Shown piece after piece: positions 5,094-62,636 of a stretch of DNA of 64,000 bases. How positions within the stretch are numbered: position 1 is the stretch's first letter; each line of letters begins with the position of its first letter. Source of the stretch: Flavobacteriales bacterium (GTDB lineage: Bacteria; Bacteroidota; Bacteroidia; Flavobacteriales_F; PHOS-HE28). The notes beneath the pieces are model-generated. The model was not told where the DNA came from and made no database searches. It was given only the letters and a program-made list of their open reading frames with translations. The stretch lies in contig JAHDVX010000005.1 in the NCBI GenBank assembly GCA_023382455.1, positions 133,861 through 197,860 on the forward strand, given 5' to 3'. Position numbers and translations under genes: made by a program.

Positions 5094-6655
5094 GCGTCCG
5101 TGCCGGGCTTGGCGTCCTCCTCCAGCAGGTCCGGGGGCACGGCCGGCGAAAGTGCGGCGGACAGCAGGCGGTCCACGGCGCGGTCCGCGCTTTGCTTGTC
5201 CTGCGCGATGCCACGCTCGGCGAGCTTCTTGCCCTCCTTGCGGATGAGGTATTTCACCACCTCCTCATGCACCTCCAGCCCGGTGTTGGTGATGAAGCAG
5301 ACCTTGCTGCGCGTCCAGTGCCAGATCAGCAGCGTGGCCAGGCGGATGGAGGTGCGGTCATGCACGCGGCCGCCTTGCACCACCAGCCCTTGGTGGCCCG
5401 GATACTGGACCAGGGCGTGGAGCACCGTGCGGATGCAACGCTGCATCCCCTCGGTGGTGAGGTCGCCGGCCGGGTGCATCACCAGGTCCTCGGGGGTGCT
5501 GGTGTCCGGCCGTTGGAAGTACATCTGGTGGGAGCGGGGCATGCTCTTGTTGAACTCGGCCATGGCGGGGTTCACCAGGCCGGGGAGGGCCACCAGCGTA
5601 CCGTCATGCCCGTCCACCGCCTCGCGTTCCTTGTCCGCCAGCATCTCCAGGAAATCGGCGCGCAGCACGCCGTCCGGCTGGGGCGGCAGAACGAAGGCCG
5701 GTGCGCCGATGGCGTGTGCCTGGCGGCGGTGGCAGATGCTGATGGTGCGCAGGCTGGCGCTGCGCAGGAAATGCGCATTCAGCCCGATGTGCTCCCGGTC
5801 GGGCAGCACGGGCTTGTCCGGGTGGCTGAACAAGGCCACATGGTCGGCGGCGAAGGCCTGCGGGGCCATGGCCAACCCGGCGGAATGGTGCCGCAGTTCG
5901 TGCAGCACCTCGTCGGCCTCCAGCAGCACGGCCAGGCTGTCCATCATCACCGTGGCCTTGAAGGTGCCGCGCGCGAATTCAAGCCGGTCCTCCAGCAGGC
6001 TGAAGATCTCCTTCCACAGCCGCGCTTCCGCATGGCCGCCCAGGTCGCGCAGGTACAGGTACACGCCGCCTTGGCGCAGGCGCATGCGCTCGGCACTGAG
6101 CACGGCCACCAGGGCCAGGTCCACGAAGGTGGCGGCCAGGGGTTCGCCGGGCGTGCCGATGCAATGGTCCGTGGCGTGCAGCGGCCGGGGCACCACCATC
6201 AGGCGCGTGGTGCTTCCGGGGTTGATCCGTACCCGCGATCCGTCGTTGCCCACGTAGGCGAGGTGCAGTGCGGCGGCCCGCTCGATGTTCTTGTGGGCCC
6301 GAAGGATGGCGCCCCGCTCATTGGGCGTCATGTCCCAGAGGTCGGCCACATAGCTCTTGGCCCCGGCGTTCATGCCGTCGATCAGTTCCTTTCGGCTGCA
6401 TCCCCCGATCAGTTCCACCCGGCGTTCCAGCAATTCGGCCGGCACAGGGTCCACCTGCCAGTTGCCATGCCGCGTGGCCGCGGTCTCCGCGAGCTCGCCC
6501 ACGGACCCCGTCCGCAGGGCATCGCGGCGCGCTTCCCCTTGCTGCAGCACCTGTAGCCGCTGCTCGCCGAAGCGCGCGTGGAGCAGGTGCACCAGCTCCA
6601 TCACCGCAGGGGTGAACAAGCGGTCCGTGTTGCGGGCTGTCAAGGTGGTCGGCAT
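5090..6655 (-). CDS. aceB: malate synthase A
   Basis: 521 aa, collinear with E. coli AceB (RRVEL.G..RKELIDGMNAGAK...DLWD; DGHDGTLVALPGL; EGMQRCIR). No isocitrate lyase gene is present in the window. Confidence 0.9.
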   Translation of the reverse strand: MPTTLTARNTDRLFTPAVMELVHLLHARFGEQRLQVLQQGEARRDALRTGSVGELAETAATRHGNWQVDPVPAELLERRVELIGGCSRKELIDGMNAGAKSYVADLWDMTPNERGAILRAHKNIERAAALHLAYVGNDGSRVRINPGSTTRLMVVPRPLHATDHCIGTPGEPLAATFVDLALVAVLSAERMRLRQGGVYLYLRDLGGHAEARLWKEIFSLLEDRLEFARGTFKATVMMDSLAVLLEADEVLHELRHHSAGLAMAPQAFAADHVALFSHPDKPVLPDREHIGLNAHFLRSASLRTISICHRRQAHAIGAPAFVLPPQPDGVLRADFLEMLADKEREAVDGHDGTLVALPGLVNPAMAEFNKSMPRSHQMYFQRPDTSTPEDLVMHPAGDLTTEGMQRCIRTVLHALVQYPGHQGLVVQGGRVHDRTSIRLATLLIWHWTRSKVCFITNTGLEVHEEVVKYLIRKEGKKLAERGIAQDKQSADRAVDRLLSAALSPAVPPDLLEEDAKPGTDA

Positions 6656-6893: not shown

Positions 6894-8213
6894 ATGAGAG
6901 CGATCCCCACAATTTCCGCCTGCATGATGGCAACCATCACGGCCACGGCCCAGACCCGCGAGATCCAATTCACCGAGTTCGACCTGCCCAACGGGCTCCA
7001 TGTGATCCTCCATGAGGACCACAGCACCCCGATCGTGGCCGTGGGCGTGATGTACCACGTGGGCAGCAAGGACGAGGCCAACGACCGGCGCGGCTTCGCC
7101 CACTTCTTCGAGCACCTGCTCTTCGAAGGATCCGATAACATCGGCCGTGGTGAGTTCGCCAAGTACGTGGAGAAGGCCGGCGGCGTGCTCAACGCCAACA
7201 CCACCGGCGACCGCACCTACTACTACGAGGTGCTGCCCAGCAACCAGCTCGACCTCGGCCTTTGGCTGGAGAGCGAGCGCATGCTCCACGCCAAGGTGGA
7301 CACCAAGGGCATCGAGACGCAGCGCGAGGTGGTGAAGGAGGAGCGCCGCCAACGCTATGAGAACCAGCCCTACGGCAGCATCCTGCCCGAGGTGCTCCGC
7401 CGCGCCTACCACAAGCATCCCTACCAGTGGCCCACCATCGGTTACATGGAGGACCTCAACGCCGCGACGGAGAAGGACTACCGTGAGTTCTACAAGACCT
7501 TCTACGTGCCCAACAACGCCGTGCTGGTGCTGGCCGGAGACCTGGACAGCAAGAAGGCCACGGCGGCGCTCACCAAGTACTTCGGCCCCATCGCCAAGGG
7601 CAAGGCCGTGCCCCGCAACAAGGTGGTGGAGCCGCCGATGACGGGCGAGGTGCGCGACACCGTGTATGACAAGATCCAACTGCCCGCCGTGGTGCAGGCC
7701 TACCGCATCCCCGCGCTGGGCACGCCCGACTTCTATGCCGTGGACATGCTGAACCGCCTGCTGAGCAACGGCAACAGCAGCCGCCTGGTGAAGAACGTGA
7801 AGGATGCCGAGCAGAAGGCCGTCTTCGTCGGATCCTTCAGCCTGCCCTTCGAGGATCCCGGCTTGGCCATCGCCTTCGCCGTGGCCAACATGGGCGTGGC
7901 GCCCGACAGCCTGGAAGCCAGCATGGACCGGCAGTTCGCACGGGTACGGGAGGAGCTGGTGCCCGAGGGCGAACTCGCCAAGCTGAAGGTGCAGATCGAG
8001 ACCGAGCACGCCAACGACAACGGGCGCGTGAGCGGCATCGCCCACAACCTGGCCAACGCCTACACCTTCCTGGGCGGGGCGGACAAGGTGAACACGGAGA
8101 TCGAGCAATACCTCGCCGTCACCCCGGCCGACCTGCAGCGCGTGGCCCGCAAGTACTTCATGCCGGAGAACCGCGTGGTGCTCTATTACCTGCCCTTGAA
8201 CCAGAAGAATTAA
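6894..8213 (+). CDS. M16 family zinc peptidase (insulinase-like), secreted
   Basis: Signal peptide, then HFFEHLLFEG (inverted zinc motif HxxEH). ~439 aa. Confidence 0.85.
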   Translation: MRAIPTISACMMATITATAQTREIQFTEFDLPNGLHVILHEDHSTPIVAVGVMYHVGSKDEANDRRGFAHFFEHLLFEGSDNIGRGEFAKYVEKAGGVLNANTTGDRTYYYEVLPSNQLDLGLWLESERMLHAKVDTKGIETQREVVKEERRQRYENQPYGSILPEVLRRAYHKHPYQWPTIGYMEDLNAATEKDYREFYKTFYVPNNAVLVLAGDLDSKKATAALTKYFGPIAKGKAVPRNKVVEPPMTGEVRDTVYDKIQLPAVVQAYRIPALGTPDFYAVDMLNRLLSNGNSSRLVKNVKDAEQKAVFVGSFSLPFEDPGLAIAFAVANMGVAPDSLEASMDRQFARVREELVPEGELAKLKVQIETEHANDNGRVSGIAHNLANAYTFLGGADKVNTEIEQYLAVTPADLQRVARKYFMPENRVVLYYLPLNQKN

Positions 8214-21222: not shown

Positions 21223-21237
21223 GGGTTCAAGTTGCCG

Positions 21238-21352
21238 GTTGTCAGTTGTTAGTTGTTAGGGGGAGAATCGACAACGGACAACGGACAACCAACAACTAAC
21301 AACTGACAACTGAGAACTGAGAACGGACAACAGACAACGAACCACGGACAAC
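21238..21352. repeat. 20-bp inverted repeat (21238-21257 / 21291-21310) embedded in a 12-unit degenerate tandem heptamer array (NNACAAC / TGAGAAC, 21269-21352)
   Basis: Units are cgacaac ggacaac ggacaac caacaac taacaac tgacaac tgagaac tgagaac ggacaac agacaac gaaccac ggacaac. Three reverse-orientation units (gttgtca gttgtta gttgtta) lie upstream. The 7-nt period precludes coding. Confidence 0.8.
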
Positions 21353-21357
21353 CACCA

Positions 21358-22107
21358 TCACGTCAACATCCCCCCGCATACATGCAGGGTCTGCCCGGTG
21401 ACGTAGCCGCTGAGGTCGCTGGCGAGGAAGACGCAGGCATTGGCCACGTCCACGGGTGTGCCGCCGCGCTTCATGGGGATGGCCTCGCGCCAGCCTTGAA
21501 CGGTCTTTTCGTCCAAGGCTCCCGTCATCTCGGTTTCGATGAAGCCCGGCGCCACGGCATTGCAGCGGATGTTGCGGCTGCCCAGCTCCAGGGCGGTGCT
21601 CTTGGTGAAGCCGATCACGCCGGCCTTGCTGGCCGCGTAGTTGGCCTGGCCCGCGTTGCCTTTCACGCCCACCACGCTGCTCATGTTGACGATGCTGCCG
21701 CTGCGCTGCTTCAGCATGGTGCGCAGCACCGCCTTGGTCATGTTGAAAACGCTCTTGAGGTTGGTGGCGATCACCGCGTCGAAGTCGGCCTCGCTCATGC
21801 GCATCAGCAACTGGTCCTTGGTGATGCCCGCGTTGTTCACCAGGATGTCCAGCCCGCCGAAGGCCTCCACCACCTGGTCCACGGTGGCCTGTGCCGAATT
21901 GAAGTCCCCCGCGTTGCTTTGGATGGCCAGCACCTTGCGGCCATGCTTCGCGCCCAGTTCCTCGGCCAGGGCGTTCGCCTTTTCCGGGCTGCTCACGTAG
22001 GTGAACGCCACATCCGCGCCCTCTTCAAGGAAGCGCTCCACGATGCCTTTGCCGATGCCGCGCGTGCCGCCGGTGACCAGCGCCTTCTTGCCTTGTAACA
22101 GTGCCAT
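21358..22107 (-). CDS. fabG: 3-oxoacyl-ACP reductase
   Basis: KKALVTGGTRGIGKGI Rossmann motif, NNAG and YAASKAG SDR catalytic motifs. 249 aa. Confidence 0.9.
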   Translation of the reverse strand: MALLQGKKALVTGGTRGIGKGIVERFLEEGADVAFTYVSSPEKANALAEELGAKHGRKVLAIQSNAGDFNSAQATVDQVVEAFGGLDILVNNAGITKDQLLMRMSEADFDAVIATNLKSVFNMTKAVLRTMLKQRSGSIVNMSSVVGVKGNAGQANYAASKAGVIGFTKSTALELGSRNIRCNAVAPGFIETEMTGALDEKTVQGWREAIPMKRGGTPVDVANACVFLASDLSGYVTGQTLHVCGGMLT

Positions 22108-22217
22108 GCCTTGTTAGCGGTTGCTTGATATGGGGCGAAGGTAAACGGGGGGGAGTAATGGGGCGCCAGAATAGGAAAGTTGCGCAGTTGCGGCCTTCAT
22201 TGGACGCAGGCCACGCC

Positions 22218-22266
22218 CAACAACCGGGAACCAACAACTGAGAACCGACAACTGAGAACCGACAAC
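22218..22266. repeat. second degenerate heptamer array (7 units: caacaac cgggaac caacaac tgagaac cgacaac tgagaac cgacaac) immediately upstream of fabG
   Basis: Same unit family and orientation as the 21269-21352 array. The two arrays bracket fabG. Confidence 0.8.
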
Positions 22267-22277
22267 GACCCTTCAGG

Positions 22278-22346
22278 CCACCACCTCCTTCACCTTCGCC
22301 CCGATCGCCGCCGGGCTGTCCACCACGTGGATGCCGCATTCGCGCA
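22278..22346 (-). pseudogene. 69-bp perfect direct-repeat copy of the sucD 3' end (encodes ...[23 protein letters not shown]), a displaced gene-end fragment
   Basis: Identical to 23116-23184 inside the sucD 3' end. The track ORF 22273..22665 is chimeric: a SucD-identical C-terminus on an R/P-rich non-protein-like N-terminus. Confidence 0.75.
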
Positions 22347-22539
22347 AGAAGATCATCCGCGATGGACGATCTTGTGCCGGCATGTCAGCAGCGGAGCACC
22401 GGAAGGGAAGGCGGCCCAGTACAAAGGGCAAACATGAACGTGGCGCTGCGCGACGGATCCGGGATGCCGGGAAGGAGGCAGTGGATCGGAACCGGTGGCC
22501 GCCGCGCAAGCGCCCGATAGGTTGGAAGGGGCCATGGCC

Positions 22540-22547
22540 GTAACTTT
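22540..22547 (+). promoter_or_regulatory. TAACTTTG Bacteroidota -7 box (TAnnTTTG) a few nt upstream of the Sel1 ATG (leaderless or short-leader transcript)
   Basis: Perfect consensus match read directly in the sequence. Confidence 0.4.
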
Positions 22548-22555
22548 GGCATGCC

Positions 22556-23041
22556 ATGGCAAATCCTGGAAACGCATACCTGGCCCAGGCCAAACGGGCC
22601 GTGGTCCTGCACGGCCATGGCGAAGCCGCGTTCAGTCTGCTGGAGCGGTCGGCCGGGTTGGGCAACGCGGAGGCGATCTATGCCATAGGCACCTGGCACT
22701 TGTTCGGCACGCATGTGCGAAAGAATTTCCGCAAGGCTGCTGAATACCTTCAGCGGGCATCGGACCTCGGGCATGCTGCCGCCAGTTTCGACCTGGCCGT
22801 TTCGTATGAGAAGGGCAAAGGTGTGGAGCGCGATAAAGGCCACGCTTTCCGGCTGTACATGAAGGCAGCGCTGTTGGGGGACCGCCAGGCCAAGTACGAA
22901 GTGGGGCGCTGCTTTTACTGGGGCATCGGCACCGCCAAGGACCGGCAAGCCGCAGAGGTCTGGTACCAGGCTTATGGCCAGGAACCGCAGGCCAAGGCAG
23001 CGGCATCGCGGAAACCGCTGGCCCGCTTGCACGGACACTGA
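22556..23041 (+). CDS. Sel1-repeat (TPR-like) protein, 161 aa
   Basis: Three or four Sel1 repeats (AxYxxGxWHLFG..., FDLAVSYEKGKGVERD, KYEVGRCFYWGIGTAKD...AEVWYQ). Sits between the two 69-bp sucD-end repeats. Confidence 0.8.
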   Translation: MANPGNAYLAQAKRAVVLHGHGEAAFSLLERSAGLGNAEAIYAIGTWHLFGTHVRKNFRKAAEYLQRASDLGHAAASFDLAVSYEKGKGVERDKGHAFRLYMKAALLGDRQAKYEVGRCFYWGIGTAKDRQAAEVWYQAYGQEPQAKAAASRKPLARLHGH

Positions 23042-23110
23042 GGTCTTGGCATGGCGTAGTTGAACGCCCACCGGCGCACACGACGCTCCTTCGCCCTACG
23101 CCACTTCCAA

Positions 23111-23980
23111 CTAGCCCACCACCTCCTTCACCTTCGCCCCGATCGCCGCCGGGCTGTCCACCACGTGGATGCCGCATTCGCGCATCACCATCTTCTTGGC
23201 GGCCGCGCTTTCGTCGGCCCCGCTTACGATGGCGCCCGCGTGGCCCATGGTGCGGCCCGCGGGGGCGGTCTCACCGGCGATGAAGCCGACCACGGGCTTC
23301 TTGCAGTTCTCCTTGATCCATCGTGCGGCACGGATCTCCAGGTCGCCGCCGATCTCGCCGATCATCACGATGGCCTCGGTCTCCGGGTCATTGGCGAAGA
23401 GCTGGATGGCCTCCAGCGTGGTGGTGCCGATGATCGGATCGCCCCCGATGCCGATGGCCGTGGTGATGCCCATGCCGGCCTTCACCACTTGGTCCGCCGC
23501 CTCGTAGGTGAGCGTGCCGCTCTTGGAGACGATGCCCACCTTGCCCTTCTTGAAGACGAAGCCCGGCATGATGCCCACCTTGCATTCTTCCGCGGTGATC
23601 ACGCCGGGGCAGTTGGGCCCGATCAGCGTGCAGCCCTTGCCCTTGATGTACTCGCGGGCCGTCACCATGTCCTTCACGGGGATGCCCTCGGTGATGCACA
23701 CGATCACCTTGATGCCCGCCTCGGCGGCCTCCATGATGGCATCTGCCGCGAAGGCCGGCGGCACGAAGATGATGCTCACGTCCGCCCCGGTGGTCTTCAC
23801 CGCATCGCTTACCGTCTCGAACACGGGCCGGTCCAAATGCTTCTGCCCGCCCTTGCCCGGGGTGACGCCGCCCACCACGTTGGTGCCGTACTCGATCATC
23901 TGGGTGGCGTGGAAGGTGCCTTCGCTGCCGGTGAAGCCTTGTACAATGACCTTGCTCTGCTTGTTGACGAGTACGCTCAT
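23111..23980 (-). CDS. sucD: succinate--CoA ligase [ADP-forming] subunit alpha
   Basis: 289 aa. [25 protein letters not shown]-terminus and the conserved His-phosphorylation region GHAGAI. Confidence 0.95.
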
Positions 23981-43026: not shown

Positions 43027-45873
43027 ATGCCGCTCAGCCGCCGCGAGATCCGCACCCGGGCCGTCCGTTTTGTGAAGCACTGGAAGGAGGCCGCCAACGA
43101 GGAGGCCGACGCCAAGCCCTTCTGGTACGAGTTCTTCCACATCTTCGGCATCCGCGCACGCACCGTGGGCAGCTACGAAGTACACGTGCGCAAGCTGGAC
43201 AATGCCCTGGGTAAGATCGACTACTTCTGGCCCGGACTGCTGCTGATCGAGCACAAGAGCCGTGGCCGCGACCTGCAGAAGGCCGCCGTGCAGGCCGCCG
43301 ACTACCTCCATGGCGTAAAGGAGCATGAGAAGCCCCGCTACATCATCGTCAGCGATTTTACACGCTTCGTGCTGCATGACCTGGAGGAGGGCAGCGAAAT
43401 CGAACTGGCCCTGGAGGAACTGCCGGAACGCATCGGCCTCTTCGACTTCATCGCCGGCTACGAGGCGCGGCCCGTGCGCGAGCAGGACCCCGTGAACATC
43501 CGCGCCGCCGAGCTGATGGGCCAATTGCACGACGAGCTCAAGGCCTCCGGCTATGCCGGCAAGGAGCTGGAAGTCTACCTCGTGCGCCTGCTCTTCATCC
43601 TCTTCGCCGACGATACCGGCATCTTCGAGCTCGATGCCTTCTACAACTACATCGTGGACCAAACGCGTGAGGACGGCACCGACCTCGGCCCGCAACTGGC
43701 CCGCCTGTTCCAACTGCTGAACACCCCGCCGGAAAAGCGCCAGAAGAACCTGGACGAGCGCCTGGCCGACTTCAAATACATCAACGGAAAGCTCTTCGCC
43801 GAGCCGCTGCCCATCGCCGATTGGAACGGCGGCATGCGCGTCACCTTGCTGGAATGCGCCAGCCTCAACTGGAGCCGCATCAGCCCGGCCATCTTCGGCG
43901 CCCTCTTCCAAAGCGCCATGGACGCCAAGGCCCGCCGCAACCTCGGCGCGCACTACACCAGCGAGGCCAACATCCTCAAGCTCATCAAGCCGCTCTTCCT
44001 CGATGAACTCTGGGCCGAGTTCGAGAAAGTGAAGGGCAGCAAGCCCAAGCTGGACCGGTTCCACAAGAAGCTCAGCGAACTGCGCTTCCTGGACCCCGCC
44101 TGCGGCTGCGGAAACTTTCTGGTGATCACCTACCGCGAGCTGCGCGAACTGGAGATCGCCGTGATAACCGCGCAACTGAAAGGCCAGCAGGTGGTGGACG
44201 TGGACAAGCTGGTGCTGCTGAACGTGGACCGCTTCTACGGCATCGAGATCGAGGAATTCCCCGCGCAGATAGCCCAGGTGGCCCTCTGGCTGATGGACCA
44301 CCAGATGAACCAGCGCATCAGCGCCGCTTTTGGCGAGTACATGGTGCGCATCCCGCTGCGGGCCAGCGCCACCATTTTATGCGCGAATGCGTTGCGTACC
44401 GATTGGCAAAGCCTGCTGCCGGATGGCGAGCGGTACGATTACATACTTGGGAATCCGCCGTTCATCGGCAGTAAACTGATGACCCCTGAAATGCGCGCGG
44501 CCATCCTGCGCATCTTCCCCGGGGTGAATGGCGCGGGCACATTGGATTTCGTGTGCGGCTGGTACGGTCTGGCCGTGCAGTACATGAAGGCACAGCGTGT
44601 CAGGCCGAGCGAAGCCGAGCAGCGTGTCAGGCCGAGCGAAGCCGAGCAGCGTGTCAGGCCGAGCGAAGCCGAGGCCACACGCTGCGCTTTTGTGAGCACC
44701 AACAGCATTACGCAGGGCGAACAAGTGGGCGCACTGTGGGGACCGCTGCTTGCCCAAGGCATCAAGATCCACTTTGCACACCGCACCTTCCGCTGGAACA
44801 ACGAGGCCCGTGGCGTGGCCGCTGTGCACTGCGTCATCATCGGCTTCGCGGATCACGATACGGACAAGAAGCACCTCTTCAGCTACGCCGATGAACGCGG
44901 CGAAGCGGAAGAACAGTTGGTGCGGAACATCAACCCGTACCTGGTGGATGGGCCGGACGTGGTGATCCGCAGCCGAAGCAAGCCGCTTTGCAAGGTGCCA
45001 GAGATCGGCATTGGAAACAAGCCCATCGACGGAGGTAACTACCTCTTCACCGATGAGGAGAAGGCTGCGTTCATCCATTTGGAACCAGCGTCCAAGAAGT
45101 ATTTCAGGCGCTGGTTGGGCAGTGATGAATTCATCAACGGCTGGCACCGCTGGTGCCTTTGGCTAGGCGAAGCGGCTCCAGGTGAGTTGCGCTCCATGCC
45201 GGAGGTGATGAAGCGCGTGGAAGCCGTGCGCAGGTTGCGGCTGGAGAGCAAGAGCGCGCCCACCCGCAAGCTGGCCGAAACCCCGACCCGCTTCCATGTG
45301 GAGAACATGCCGAAGAAGGAATACCTGATCATTCCGGAAGTTTCTTCGGAACGGCGGCCATTCATTCCGATCGGCTTCGAGAACCCAAGTACGCTTGCAA
45401 GCAACTTGGTCAAGATCCTTCCCAACGCATCGAAATACCACTTCGGCATCCTGAGCAGCACCATGCACAATGCGTGGATGCGAGCCGTCTGTGGAAGGTT
45501 GAAGAGTGACTACCGCTACTCCAAGGACATTGTCTACAACAACTTCCCTTGGCCCACCAATCCTACTGTCGCGCAACAGGCGGCCGTGGAGCAGGCCGCG
45601 CAAGGCGTGCTGGATGCGCGTGCAGCGCACACCACCCCTGTCAGTTCGAGCGCAGCCGAGAACGGCAGGGGTGCCAGCCTCGCCGACCTCTACGACCCGC
45701 TCACCATGCCGCCCAACCTGGTAAAGGCCCACGCCGCGCTGGACAAGGCCGTGGACAGGTGCTATAGGCCGCAAGCCTTCGAGAGCGATGCCAAACGGGT
45801 GGAGTACTTGTTCGGGTTGTATGAGAAGTACACGGCGGGGTTGGTGGGGGTGAAGTTGACCAAGAAGATGTGA
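43027..45873 (+). CDS. MmeI-family Type IIL restriction-modification enzyme (fused PD-ExK endonuclease + gamma-class N6-adenine methyltransferase + TRD), 948 aa
   Basis: N-terminal D-x-EHK nuclease motif (GKIDYFWPGLLLIEHKSRGRDL) closely resembling the MmeI N-terminus; DPACGCGNFL (motif I), ILGNPPF (motif IV), FVSTNSITQGEQV; length close to MmeI (919 aa). Confidence 0.85.
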   Translation: MPLSRREIRTRAVRFVKHWKEAANEEADAKPFWYEFFHIFGIRARTVGSYEVHVRKLDNALGKIDYFWPGLLLIEHKSRGRDLQKAAVQAADYLHGVKEHEKPRYIIVSDFTRFVLHDLEEGSEIELALEELPERIGLFDFIAGYEARPVREQDPVNIRAAELMGQLHDELKASGYAGKELEVYLVRLLFILFADDTGIFELDAFYNYIVDQTREDGTDLGPQLARLFQLLNTPPEKRQKNLDERLADFKYINGKLFAEPLPIADWNGGMRVTLLECASLNWSRISPAIFGALFQSAMDAKARRNLGAHYTSEANILKLIKPLFLDELWAEFEKVKGSKPKLDRFHKKLSELRFLDPACGCGNFLVITYRELRELEIAVITAQLKGQQVVDVDKLVLLNVDRFYGIEIEEFPAQIAQVALWLMDHQMNQRISAAFGEYMVRIPLRASATILCANALRTDWQSLLPDGERYDYILGNPPFIGSKLMTPEMRAAILRIFPGVNGAGTLDFVCGWYGLAVQYMKAQRVRPSEAEQRVRPSEAEQRVRPSEAEATRCAFVSTNSITQGEQVGALWGPLLAQGIKIHFAHRTFRWNNEARGVAAVHCVIIGFADHDTDKKHLFSYADERGEAEEQLVRNINPYLVDGPDVVIRSRSKPLCKVPEIGIGNKPIDGGNYLFTDEEKAAFIHLEPASKKYFRRWLGSDEFINGWHRWCLWLGEAAPGELRSMPEVMKRVEAVRRLRLESKSAPTRKLAETPTRFHVENMPKKEYLIIPEVSSERRPFIPIGFENPSTLASNLVKILPNASKYHFGILSSTMHNAWMRAVCGRLKSDYRYSKDIVYNNFPWPTNPTVAQQAAVEQAAQGVLDARAAHTTPVSSSAAENGRGASLADLYDPLTMPPNLVKAHAALDKAVDRCYRPQAFESDAKRVEYLFGLYEKYTAGLVGVKLTKKM
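44593..44673 (+). repeat. perfect 27-bp x3 in-frame tandem repeat (cagcgtgtcaggccgagcgaagccgag) inside the MmeI-like gene, encoding (QRVRPSEAE)x3
   Basis: Seen directly. Located between the MTase motif IV region and the FVSTNS motif. Confidence 0.85.
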
Positions 45874-61199: not shown

Positions 61200-62636
61200 T
61201 CAGAAGGATTTCTCCATCTCCGCGGCCTTGCGGAAGAGCAGGTGGTTCTCCAGGGAGATGTGGATGTGCGTGTCGTCGTCCAGTTCCTTCAGTTTGCGGA
61301 ACAGCAGCGAGTAGCTGGCACAGGCATCCTCCGGCGGCGCATAGCCTCCGGTGATCTCATGCAGCTCGTCGATCATGCCGCCTACCGAGGTGTGCTCCTT
61401 CACCAGCTTGTCCAACTTGTCCTGGAAACGGCCCATGCTGCTCGCGGGCAGCGGCTGGCCGGAGTTCTTGGCGGCCACCAGTTGCTTGATGTACGGGAAC
61501 ATGGTCTTCTCCTCGTCCGTGGCGTGCTCCAGCAGTTCATCGCTCACGGCCTGTACCAATTCGTTCACGCGGTGCAGCTCGGGGTGGTGCGCGCCGTGCA
61601 CCTTTTCCACCTTGGCCGAGTACATCTTGATGTCCGGGAGGTTCTTCCGCAGGAAGCCGTGGTGGGTATTCACGATGAAGTCCGCCAGGAAGTCGATGCT
61701 CCATTCATGGTAGGGCAGGGCGGAGCGGCTTTGGTCCTTCTCCACTTCACGCAGTTCCTGTTCCACGCGCGTCACGTCGATGCCCTTTGCGGCGCAGGCT
61801 TCGTTCAGGGTCATGTCGCCGTGGCAGCAGAAGTCCAGGTCGTGTTTCTTGAACACTTCGGCCTTGCGCATGTCCTTGGCCACGATCTCGCCGAGGGTCT
61901 CACCCGTGGTGCCTTGCGGCCGCTTGGTGATCTTCACCCGCCACCACCGCGGGCCCTGCTCCAAGTATTCCCAGGTGAACACGTCACCCATTTCTCCCTG
62001 CATCTGGTAGTACAGCGGCTTGGGGTCATGGTCGTTGTGGATGGTCAGGCTTTCACCTCCTTGCAGGGCGTGGTAGCGGCTGAAGATGGTGGGGTGCTTC
62101 TCGCGCGGGGCCAGCTTGGTCACGTCCAGGATGTTCTCGCCGCTCCCATCGGCCCCGGCGATCTTGCGGGTGATCTTCACTTTCCACCACACCGGGCCTT
62201 GCTCCAGATACTCCCAACCGAAGGCGTCGCCATGCTCGGCTTCCAAGTGGTAGCGTAGCGGAACGGGATCGTGGTCGTTATGGATGGTTAGGCTTTCGCC
62301 GCCCTGCAACTGGTCGATCCGGGCGAAGATGGTGCTGTGCTTCACCATCGGCGGCAGCTGGGTGACGTCAAGGATGTTCCGGCCTTTCTCATTCTGTGGG
62401 GCGCGCTTGGTGAGCTTCACCTTCCACCATTCCGGGCCTTGCTCCAGGTATTCCCAGGCAATGGTGTCCTGGTGCGTGTGGGCCAGCTGGTAGCGCAGCG
62501 GGGCGGGGTCGTGGTCGTTGTGGATGATCAGGCTTTCGCCATCCTGCAATTGGGCGATGCGGTTGAAGATGGTGCTGTGCTTCATCATCGGCGCCAGTTG
62601 GGTCACGTCCAGGATCTGCTCGGTCGTTGTTTCCAT
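61200..62636 (-). CDS. 3x DUF2249 repeats fused to a RIC (ScdA/YtfE, repair of iron centres) hemerythrin-like di-iron domain, 478 aa
   Basis: Three ~85-aa units ILDVTQLxPxxKHxTIFxRxxxLQxGESLxIHNDHDPxPLxY...WEYLEQGPxWWxVKI, then a ScdA/RIC-like domain with His-rich motifs (HHGFLRKNLP, HGAHHPEL). Confidence 0.7.
   Translation of the reverse strand: METTTEQILDVTQLAPMMKHSTIFNRIAQLQDGESLIIHNDHDPAPLRYQLAHTHQDTIAWEYLEQGPEWWKVKLTKRAPQNEKGRNILDVTQLPPMVKHSTIFARIDQLQGGESLTIHNDHDPVPLRYHLEAEHGDAFGWEYLEQGPVWWKVKITRKIAGADGSGENILDVTKLAPREKHPTIFSRYHALQGGESLTIHNDHDPKPLYYQMQGEMGDVFTWEYLEQGPRWWRVKITKRPQGTTGETLGEIVAKDMRKAEVFKKHDLDFCCHGDMTLNEACAAKGIDVTRVEQELREVEKDQSRSALPYHEWSIDFLADFIVNTHHGFLRKNLPDIKMYSAKVEKVHGAHHPELHRVNELVQAVSDELLEHATDEEKTMFPYIKQLVAAKNSGQPLPASSMGRFQDKLDKLVKEHTSVGGMIDELHEITGGYAPPEDACASYSLLFRKLKELDDDTHIHISLENHLLFRKAAEMEKSF

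Follow-up and report, generated by a model that had tools for sequence, protein, structure and literature searches.

Prophage e14 and phage 21 integrate into icd of Escherichia coli, supply a replacement 3′ end, and leave a displaced icd fragment. Elements related to ICESt1 and ICESt3 are found at fda of Streptococcus thermophilus. The tandem accretion of integrative elements has been described for cis-mobilizable elements (CIMEs) and integrative mobilizable elements (IMEs) (PMC5704250). In rhs and cdi loci, according to the passage of PMC5727410 that cites Jackson et al. 2009, C-terminal displacement gives rise to orphan toxin–immunity modules. The rAID-1 arrays of Bacteroidales feature a 5′ XerD-like recombinase, at least two co-directional genes, and a GC content well below that of the genome (bioRxiv 10.1101/471110), and Sel1-repeat immunity proteins are documented, with Sel1E directed against VgrG4 in Klebsiella (PMC7108748). 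The locus described here lies in a 64-kb stretch of DNA from an uncultured Flavobacteriales bacterium (contig JAHDVX010000005.1 of assembly GCA_023382455.1), hereafter the window, the positions of which are used throughout unless a compared locus is named. It consists of a cassette of two small genes, sORF53 and a Sel1-repeat gene (Sel1), which is inserted between sucD and fabG and carries the same 69 bp of the sucD 3′ end on either side.

Like a CIME, the locus is an integrase-less segment between direct repeats that hold the end of a metabolic gene, the gene itself being intact: the perfect 69-bp sucD-end repeat lies on both sides of sORF53 and Sel1, and no recombinase is encoded within ±6 kb. 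In addition, the related locus L105 (L-numbers are labels of compared loci) has a second cassette beside the gene and three copies of the repeat. Unlike a CIME, the locus has no cognate integrase-bearing element and no strain polymorphism, as judged from sucD loci with ±5 kb flanks; the repeat measures 69-140 nt and extends past the stop codon, the cassettes are smaller than 1 kb, and inheritance is vertical across species. With e14 and phage 21 it shares a tricarboxylic acid cycle gene that would stay functional as the incoming DNA carries the 3′ end, and a displaced end that is a pseudo-fragment. However, these two are prophages that encode an integrase of their own and measure 15-40 kb, whereas the cassette has 0.8 kb and no integrase.

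The likeness to rhs displacement, as outlined in the cited passage, includes a conserved 3′ segment, a new tip with its immunity gene, a repeated fragment of the conserved segment, and older material; here, too, recombination would be anchored in a conserved segment, and the putative cargo consists of a C-terminal toxin domain and an immunity gene, with sORF53 homologous to RHS tips. The anchor is, however, the sucD end and not an rhs core, no rhs gene lies nearby, and sORF53 has its own start codon and lacks a delivery domain. Domain homology and a conserved gene pair can be appreciated at the sequence level, but an orphan rhs module is preceded by an rhs-core fragment and lies downstream of a full rhs gene, whereas the upstream DNA here is the sucD-end copy. 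The rAID-1 arrays occur in the same phylum and are likewise immunity-type gene arrays split by repeated intergenic sequence; their recombinase, co-directional genes, and low GC content are all absent, and the locus does not belong to this group. As with Sel1E and VgrG4, a small cytoplasmic Sel1-repeat protein would be encoded right after a toxin domain, but the two toxin domains are not related, and the surroundings of the locus contain no secretion system. An integron cassette or a cluster of attC sites lacking integron integrases (CALIN) was considered and rejected: there is no attC-like hairpin, and no tyrosine recombinase or IntI was found near the locus or in a nonexhaustive tblastn scan of the window.

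A duplicated sucD end and a fixed insertion

The sucD gene (23111-23980, minus strand) encodes the 289-aa alpha subunit of succinate–CoA ligase and is intact. The direct repeat copy DR2 (23116-23184) lies within its last 23 codons, minus the final codon, and is identical at 69/69 positions to the copy DR1 (22278-22346) on the other side of the cassette—a duplication that had been pointed out in an earlier note on this DNA and is confirmed here. Only these two matches to the 69-mer occur in the 64 kb, even with three mismatches allowed, and none in 100 dinucleotide shuffles; the pair is the sole direct repeat of this kind in the window. DR1 is part of a displaced, nonfunctional sucD 3′ end (22273-22346, minus strand). 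The identity breaks off 3 nt short of the stop codon, where the real gene reads GGC TAG and the copy GCC TGA, and its inner end lies at ...TGCGCGAA.

The window sequence is identical to contig JASNYC010000001.1 of assembly GCA_048500375.1, and seven further long conspecific assemblies from other samples are 99.2-99.8% identical to it and hold both copies with 0 mismatches. Since these eight independent assemblies (99.2-100% identity over about 12 kb; differing samples and assemblers; one 1.36-Mb contig among them) all have both copies in the same arrangement (8/8), the 69-bp repeat is real and not an artefact of assembly. Two short conspecific contigs end within the repeat, as expected if it is longer than the assembler's word, and breaks of this type would also be produced by a misassembled duplication. 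However, the agreement of the eight assemblies and the diverged versions of the repeat in sister species effectively refute such an origin already.

A survey of one genome per species yielded 80 Flavobacteriales sucD loci. Of these, 28 have fabG in the same orientation as sucD and downstream of it, among them L021, the sucD of which is 93% identical at the amino acid level; the gap between the two genes is about 110-200 bp in most of the 28 loci and 351 bp in L021, and the gene next after fabG in L021 and many others is the same, encoding a 694-aa protein. Neither a Sel1 homologue nor a second sucD end occurs in any of the 80 loci. The direct succession of sucD and fabG is the ancestral order in Flavobacteriales; therefore, the cassette is an insertion relative to this adjacency, with the upstream copy being a gene end that was displaced and does not code for protein. 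The sucD–fabG spacer is a variable spot, since eight loci hold 0.8-3.3 kb of other, unrelated genes in it, with no recombinase among these genes. In loci L203-L206 of another lineage (sucD 93% identical), fabG is replaced by the gene of a 166-aa protein without a Pfam family, which is convergent and lies only 25 nt past the sucD stop (5896-6396 of these loci, minus strand).

Upstream of DR1, the reading frame lacks conservation, and in L101 and L105 stop codons close it within a short distance. These stops in sister species, together with the heptamers that follow DR1 in the same way as they follow the native sucD stop in relatives, identify DR1 as a displaced, non-coding gene end. The proposal of the earlier note that the upstream copy is a displaced gene-end fragment is thus borne out both by the ancestral gene order and by the sister-species stops. 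Two other roles were considered for DR1. The C-terminus of a real antisense protein (130-aa open reading frame (ORF), 22273-22665) was rejected as the frame is stopped in sister species, and a promoter of fabG is unlikely, a conserved promoter-like box adjoining fabG itself.

The pair of sORF53 and Sel1 is located between fabG and sucD in five species-level lineages (window, L101, L105, L112, and L114). It also occurs beside a MarR/RND cluster (L109-L111), between aconitase/bestrophin and an MR_MLE gene (L116-L118), and between an enoyl-CoA hydratase-like ORF and a convergent 354-aa aminotransferase-like ORF (L120), the latter two named from translation only. No repeats of neighboring gene ends flank the pair in L109, L116, L117, L120, L112, or L114. 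L101 is colinear with the window at 81% nucleotide identity over 3.5 kb and features a repeat of 140 nt at 94%, made up of 67 nt of sucD and the 73 nt that follow its stop codon. In L105 the sucD end is present three times, the order being sucD, PIN/antitoxin pair, copy 2, Sel1 cassette, copy 1, fabG. The pair between two of these copies (5626-6268 of L105, minus strand) consists of a PIN_3-domain toxin and an 83-aa upstream partner; therefore, both cassettes at the site appear to be toxin–antidote pairs.

All 20-21 contigs with an identical sucD or Sel1 protein have a filled site, and no empty site is found within the species; the sole one comes from a relative whose distance is about that of the deepest cassette carriers. 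Hence, the duplicated arrangement is fixed in the species, is shared with the two sister species represented by L101 and L105, and predates their split. The earlier note had read the locus as the footprint of an integration, which holds true for the insertion as such; a recent or active event does not agree with an arrangement that conspecifics, L101, and L105 have in common. The same note had named a duplication fixed among relatives, without an empty site, as the mark of an old rearrangement, and this is largely what the relatives feature. A metagenome scan with a Sel1 profile returned mostly unrelated Sel1 proteins and two true relatives only, and searches of plasmids, phages, and viral contigs for the cassette returned nothing related.

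The convergent stop codons of Sel1 and sucD are separated by a spacer (23042-23110), the part of which at 23071-23110 is homologous to the downstream segment of about 73 nt that is co-duplicated with the gene end in L101. Because of this homology, the original duplication probably spanned the stop codon as well, and its DR1-side part was probably overwritten later by an unstable heptamer array. This array of GTTGTCN with a 14-nt period (22217-22272, minus strand) stands right behind the displaced sucD end and its stop codon and varies in copy number between strains: conspecific assemblies differ by 7, 14, and 42 nt, including insertions of +14 and +42 nt into this array in two of them. GTTGTCN arrays occur at just one other place in the 64 kb, namely after fabG (21230-21357), and the heptamers are also found behind the real sucD stop in L105 and L114. 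The array at 21230-21357 holds an inverted pair with the potential to form a hairpin. The fabG gene itself (21358-22107, minus strand), the ancestral downstream neighbor of sucD, was identified as an ORF encoding a 249-aa 3-oxoacyl-acyl carrier protein reductase with Pfam adh_short/KR.

Further repeats of other types were noted in passing. L114 has a direct repeat of about 110 nt (81-86% identity; 6070-6180 and 7788-7897 of that locus), the second copy of which lies 1.7 kb downstream after a 443-aa gene. It is positioned at the end of a short Por_Secre_tail ORF, in an island between Sel1 and sucD, and probably reflects two related C-terminal domains of the type IX secretion system (T9SS). In the window, a perfect 27-nt tandem repeat in three copies (44593-44673) and a 240-nt tandem repeat in 2.6 copies with 74% matches (62004-62622) are present, the latter probably inside a coding region.

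The probable toxin–immunity pair sORF53 and Sel1

The approximately 770 bp between the repeat copies do not carry only a Sel1 gene, as had been thought, but also a conserved gene of 53 codons, sORF53 (22382-22543, plus strand). It encodes an unannotated basic protein of the sequence MSAAEHRKGRRPSTKGKHERG...WKGPWP, a probable small toxin. About 190 bp between DR1 and Sel1 are conserved to the same degree as the Sel1 coding region in an alignment of six species. The interspecies differences within sORF53 are codon-like and include runs of synonymous changes: TGG CCG CCG CGC AAG CGC CCG and TGG CCT CCA CGG AAA CGC CCC both encode WPPRKRP. A structured RNA, be it similar to the signal recognition particle RNA or other, was rejected, because Rfam has nothing at E<=1 and substitutions of this kind point to a small protein gene. 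The protein is 60-89% identical across four genomic contexts (Flavobacteriales-type loci) and is present in every context of the Sel1 gene. It is left uncalled in all examined assemblies but those of one species, where a 65-aa gene is called (L114/L115). The linker on its 5′ side (22347-22381, plus strand) is poorly conserved over the first ~20 nt, and cassette homology sets in from ACGATCTTGTGCC onward; homology to the cassette of L109, which lies in another context, begins at 22367.

sORF53 belongs to no Pfam, NCBIfam, or Rfam family and has no relative in the PDB; a word-indexed protein search returned no candidates, the window contains no second sORF53-like match, and the locus contains no rhs gene. 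A HMMER scan of 1.8 billion representatives, however, gave 277 hits, many of them full-length matches to the 51-residue domain, located at the very C-terminal end of proteins that reach 1,746 aa. The best 150 of the 277 include 15 with RHS_repeat, 11 with RHS, 3 with PT-HINT, 2 with Peptidase_C39, 1 with DUF4280 (PAAR-like), and 1 with eCIS_core. The RHS, PT-HINT, PAAR-like, and eCIS modules are delivery modules of polymorphic toxins; thus, the domain is one that sits at the extreme C-terminus of such proteins, and the window sORF53 keeps all its invariant residues. sORF53 is, therefore, a probable stand-alone copy of an RHS-type polymorphic-toxin C-terminal domain—a domain that is widespread at RHS-type toxin tips and yet has no match in the family libraries searched.

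Sel1 (22556-23041, plus strand) encodes a 161-aa protein (Pfam Sel1, E=3e-20). With three repeats and 72.3 bits against a cut-off of 30.7 for PF08238, it belongs to the Sel1-like repeat proteins, and no N-terminal signal sequence is evident by eye. The gene is found directly downstream of sORF53 in every context, with at least five genomic contexts known, and in P0234 the C-terminal tip of an RHS protein with the sORF53 domain runs straight into a Sel1-repeat protein. Because of this constant order and its place after an RHS toxin tip, Sel1 is probably the immunity or antidote partner of sORF53. In L121, a distant high-GC contig, a shortened version of sORF53 lies 4 nt upstream of a Sel1 gene with 42% identity. 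As judged by homology and gene order, the cassette would be a toxin–immunity-like pair, and the annotation of the locus changes from a lone Sel1 gene to a probable toxin–immunity pair.

The TAACTTTG box (22541-22548, plus strand) ends 7 nt before the ATG of Sel1 and is one of seven TAnnTTTG sites in all 64 kb. It keeps its position in L101, L105, L109, L112, and L114 and may be an internal Bacteroidetes-type −7 promoter element. The first three bases of this box, which the earlier note had read as the promoter of Sel1 itself, are the TAA stop codon of sORF53. The four-fold-site divergence of Sel1 between the window and L101 or L105 amounts to 0.53-0.59, about twice that of sucD and fabG (0.25-0.32). 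This higher divergence may stem from a relaxed constraint on codons or from the cassette having a history of its own.

Origin of the arrangement and identity of the copies

The overall best explanation, to which we assign a probability of roughly 0.5, is an ancient homology-anchored displacement of a gene end (Campbell-type) in which toxin–antidote cassettes were captured. The pair of sORF53 and Sel1 would have been captured between sucD and fabG in an ancestor from which a small clade of uncultured Flavobacteriales with high GC content descends. The capture would have been anchored in the sucD 3′ end by incoming DNA that included the terminal ~70 nt of sucD and, at first, a further ~70 nt past its stop codon. 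This DNA may have been a circle that entered the resident gene through one crossover (Campbell-type), or it may have been linked to it by one homologous and one illegitimate join; either way, sucD would be left intact and a second copy of its end placed on the far side of the cassette beside fabG. The PIN toxin–antitoxin pair of one sister lineage would have been added by the same process or its repetition, which would account for the three copies of the sucD end there. The arrangement then became fixed and was inherited vertically, and a recent gene conversion in the lineage of the window would have rendered the copies identical over 69 bp.

Homology-anchored recombination is favored over a core-site integrase because of several features of the locus. 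With 69-140 nt the repeats are long, they extend across the stop codon, and their inner boundaries vary among copies; either strand of the repeat folds no better than shuffled sequences (z = 0.27 to 1.08); and the GC content of the cassette (0.59-0.66) matches that of its surroundings (0.62-0.70). No plasmid or phage copy is known from the searches described above, and no recombinase was found: none within ±6 kb, none among the domains of ten mid-size window ORFs, and no significant hit in a partial, nonexhaustive tblastn scan of the window with XerD. An element without an integrase, as had been proposed from the window alone, agrees with these results. The accompanying hint of a short inversion at the junction does not persist. 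The two 8-mers are real (aagaagat at 22346-22353, reaching into the linker, and atcttctt at 23190-23197), but L114, a locus without the repeat, also contains GAAGAT[GC]ATC ahead of sORF53, and L101 and L105 have no inverted 8-mer; the motif is, hence, treated as conserved cassette sequence and not as a junction scar.

The identity of the two copies calls for an explanation of its own. Between the window and L101 or L105, sucD and fabG have diverged by 0.25-0.32 at four-fold sites, so that a neutral 69-nt copy would have acquired about nine changes on the window branch by our own rough estimate. As none is present, we infer that a recent gene conversion in the lineage of the window is the simplest account of the perfect identity. 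The displaced copies of L101 and L105 have 5-8 differences from their own real ends over 60 sites. A comparison of the fabG-proximal copies between species gives 4-9 differences over 60 sites, well below the four-fold-site divergence, which also fits a repeated resetting from the constrained gene. The same low divergence can be read as a sign that DR1 is kept for a function—as a terminator, a promoter, or another regulator of fabG or the cassette—and that selection, not conversion, holds the copies identical. This we regard as improbable: selection on DR1 alone would not keep its synonymous sites identical to those of DR2, DR1 is missing in L112, L114, and three other contexts that express these genes all the same, no secondary structure is seen beyond that of shuffles, and a conserved promoter-like box (TAnCTTCG) lies much nearer to fabG. 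Within-species single-nucleotide polymorphisms are too sparse to inform on the repeat.

Some observations weigh against the capture, the conversion, and the function proposed above. No donor, circular form, or empty site is seen, so that the route is read from anatomy only, and the recombinase search covered only the 64 kb of the window out of the whole genome. In L112 and L114 the cassette occupies this place, too, but no repeat accompanies it; either the repeat was lost there or it arose after the arrival of the cassette, the latter favoring a local duplication. The differences between copies lean toward synonymous sites, albeit in small counts, which is suggestive of displaced ends that were once functional and fits conversion followed by drift equally well. 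The AlphaFold model of sORF53 has low confidence (pLDDT 63) and is too uncertain for a fold search.

Two other routes would account for the same anatomy. A purely local origin is possible, though unlikely: with the cassette already at the site, an illegitimate tandem duplication of the sucD end, the downstream DNA, and the cassette would be followed by the loss of one cassette copy, or a staggered break of ~140 nt would be filled in, and neither path requires incoming DNA with sucD sequence. The cassette without repeat in L112 and L114 agrees with such an origin, as do the L101 repeat, which combines the gene end with non-coding downstream DNA in the manner of a segmental duplication, and the lack of mobile-element hallmarks. 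However, it needs two steps, including a deletion that removes exactly one cassette copy, and would have to occur twice with similar end points to produce the three copies and two different cassettes of L105; no intermediate genome with two cassette copies is seen. The repeats might also be the left and right attachment sites (attL/attR) of an integrative element that used a tyrosine or serine recombinase to enter the sucD 3′ end and has since lost its recombination genes. What remains would be a CIME-like stump that a recombinase encoded elsewhere could mobilize, and the triple array of L105 would be tandem accretion at a regenerated att site. L105 does contain two unrelated toxin–antidote cassettes in tandem, each followed by a sucD-end copy, as in CIME/IME accretion (PMC5704250). 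We nevertheless consider this origin rather doubtful, given that no integrase-bearing element is found at sucD in the 80 related loci or in about 30 further contexts (±5 kb flanks) and that conspecific assemblies display no presence/absence polymorphism. In addition, the repeat is long and continues for 73 nt beyond the stop in L101, and its inner boundary varies from copy to copy; the same cassette occurs without a repeat in three other contexts; no plasmid, phage, or viral-contig copy exists among the sequences searched; and the GC content equals that of the surroundings. Homology-anchored capture hence remains the preferred explanation of how the cassette and the second sucD end came to lie together.

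Significance for cassette capture in Flavobacteriales

As it stands, the locus is an evolutionary scar and not an active mobile element. Its novelty is modest: a variant of gene-end displacement that carries a toxin domain family without a match in the libraries searched, together with a probable Sel1 immunity gene. On the preferred explanation, it would be a clean natural example of how the end of a housekeeping gene is duplicated when selfish toxin–antidote cassettes are captured without a resident integrase, and of how the duplicate end persists across speciation and is homogenized by gene conversion. A more far-reaching idea, which is quite speculative, is that the last ~70 nt of sucD serve as a reusable landing pad in this clade, at which toxin–antidote cassettes are captured one after another. 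The RHS-type tip with Sel1 would have come first and the PIN pair thereafter, each capture restoring sucD and leaving a displaced end behind, by means of either a recombinase encoded elsewhere or a recombinase-independent homology route—in effect, a miniature integron-like accretion system. If true, this would constitute an accretion of small cassettes at a core gene that is distinct from both integrons and integrase-borne islands.

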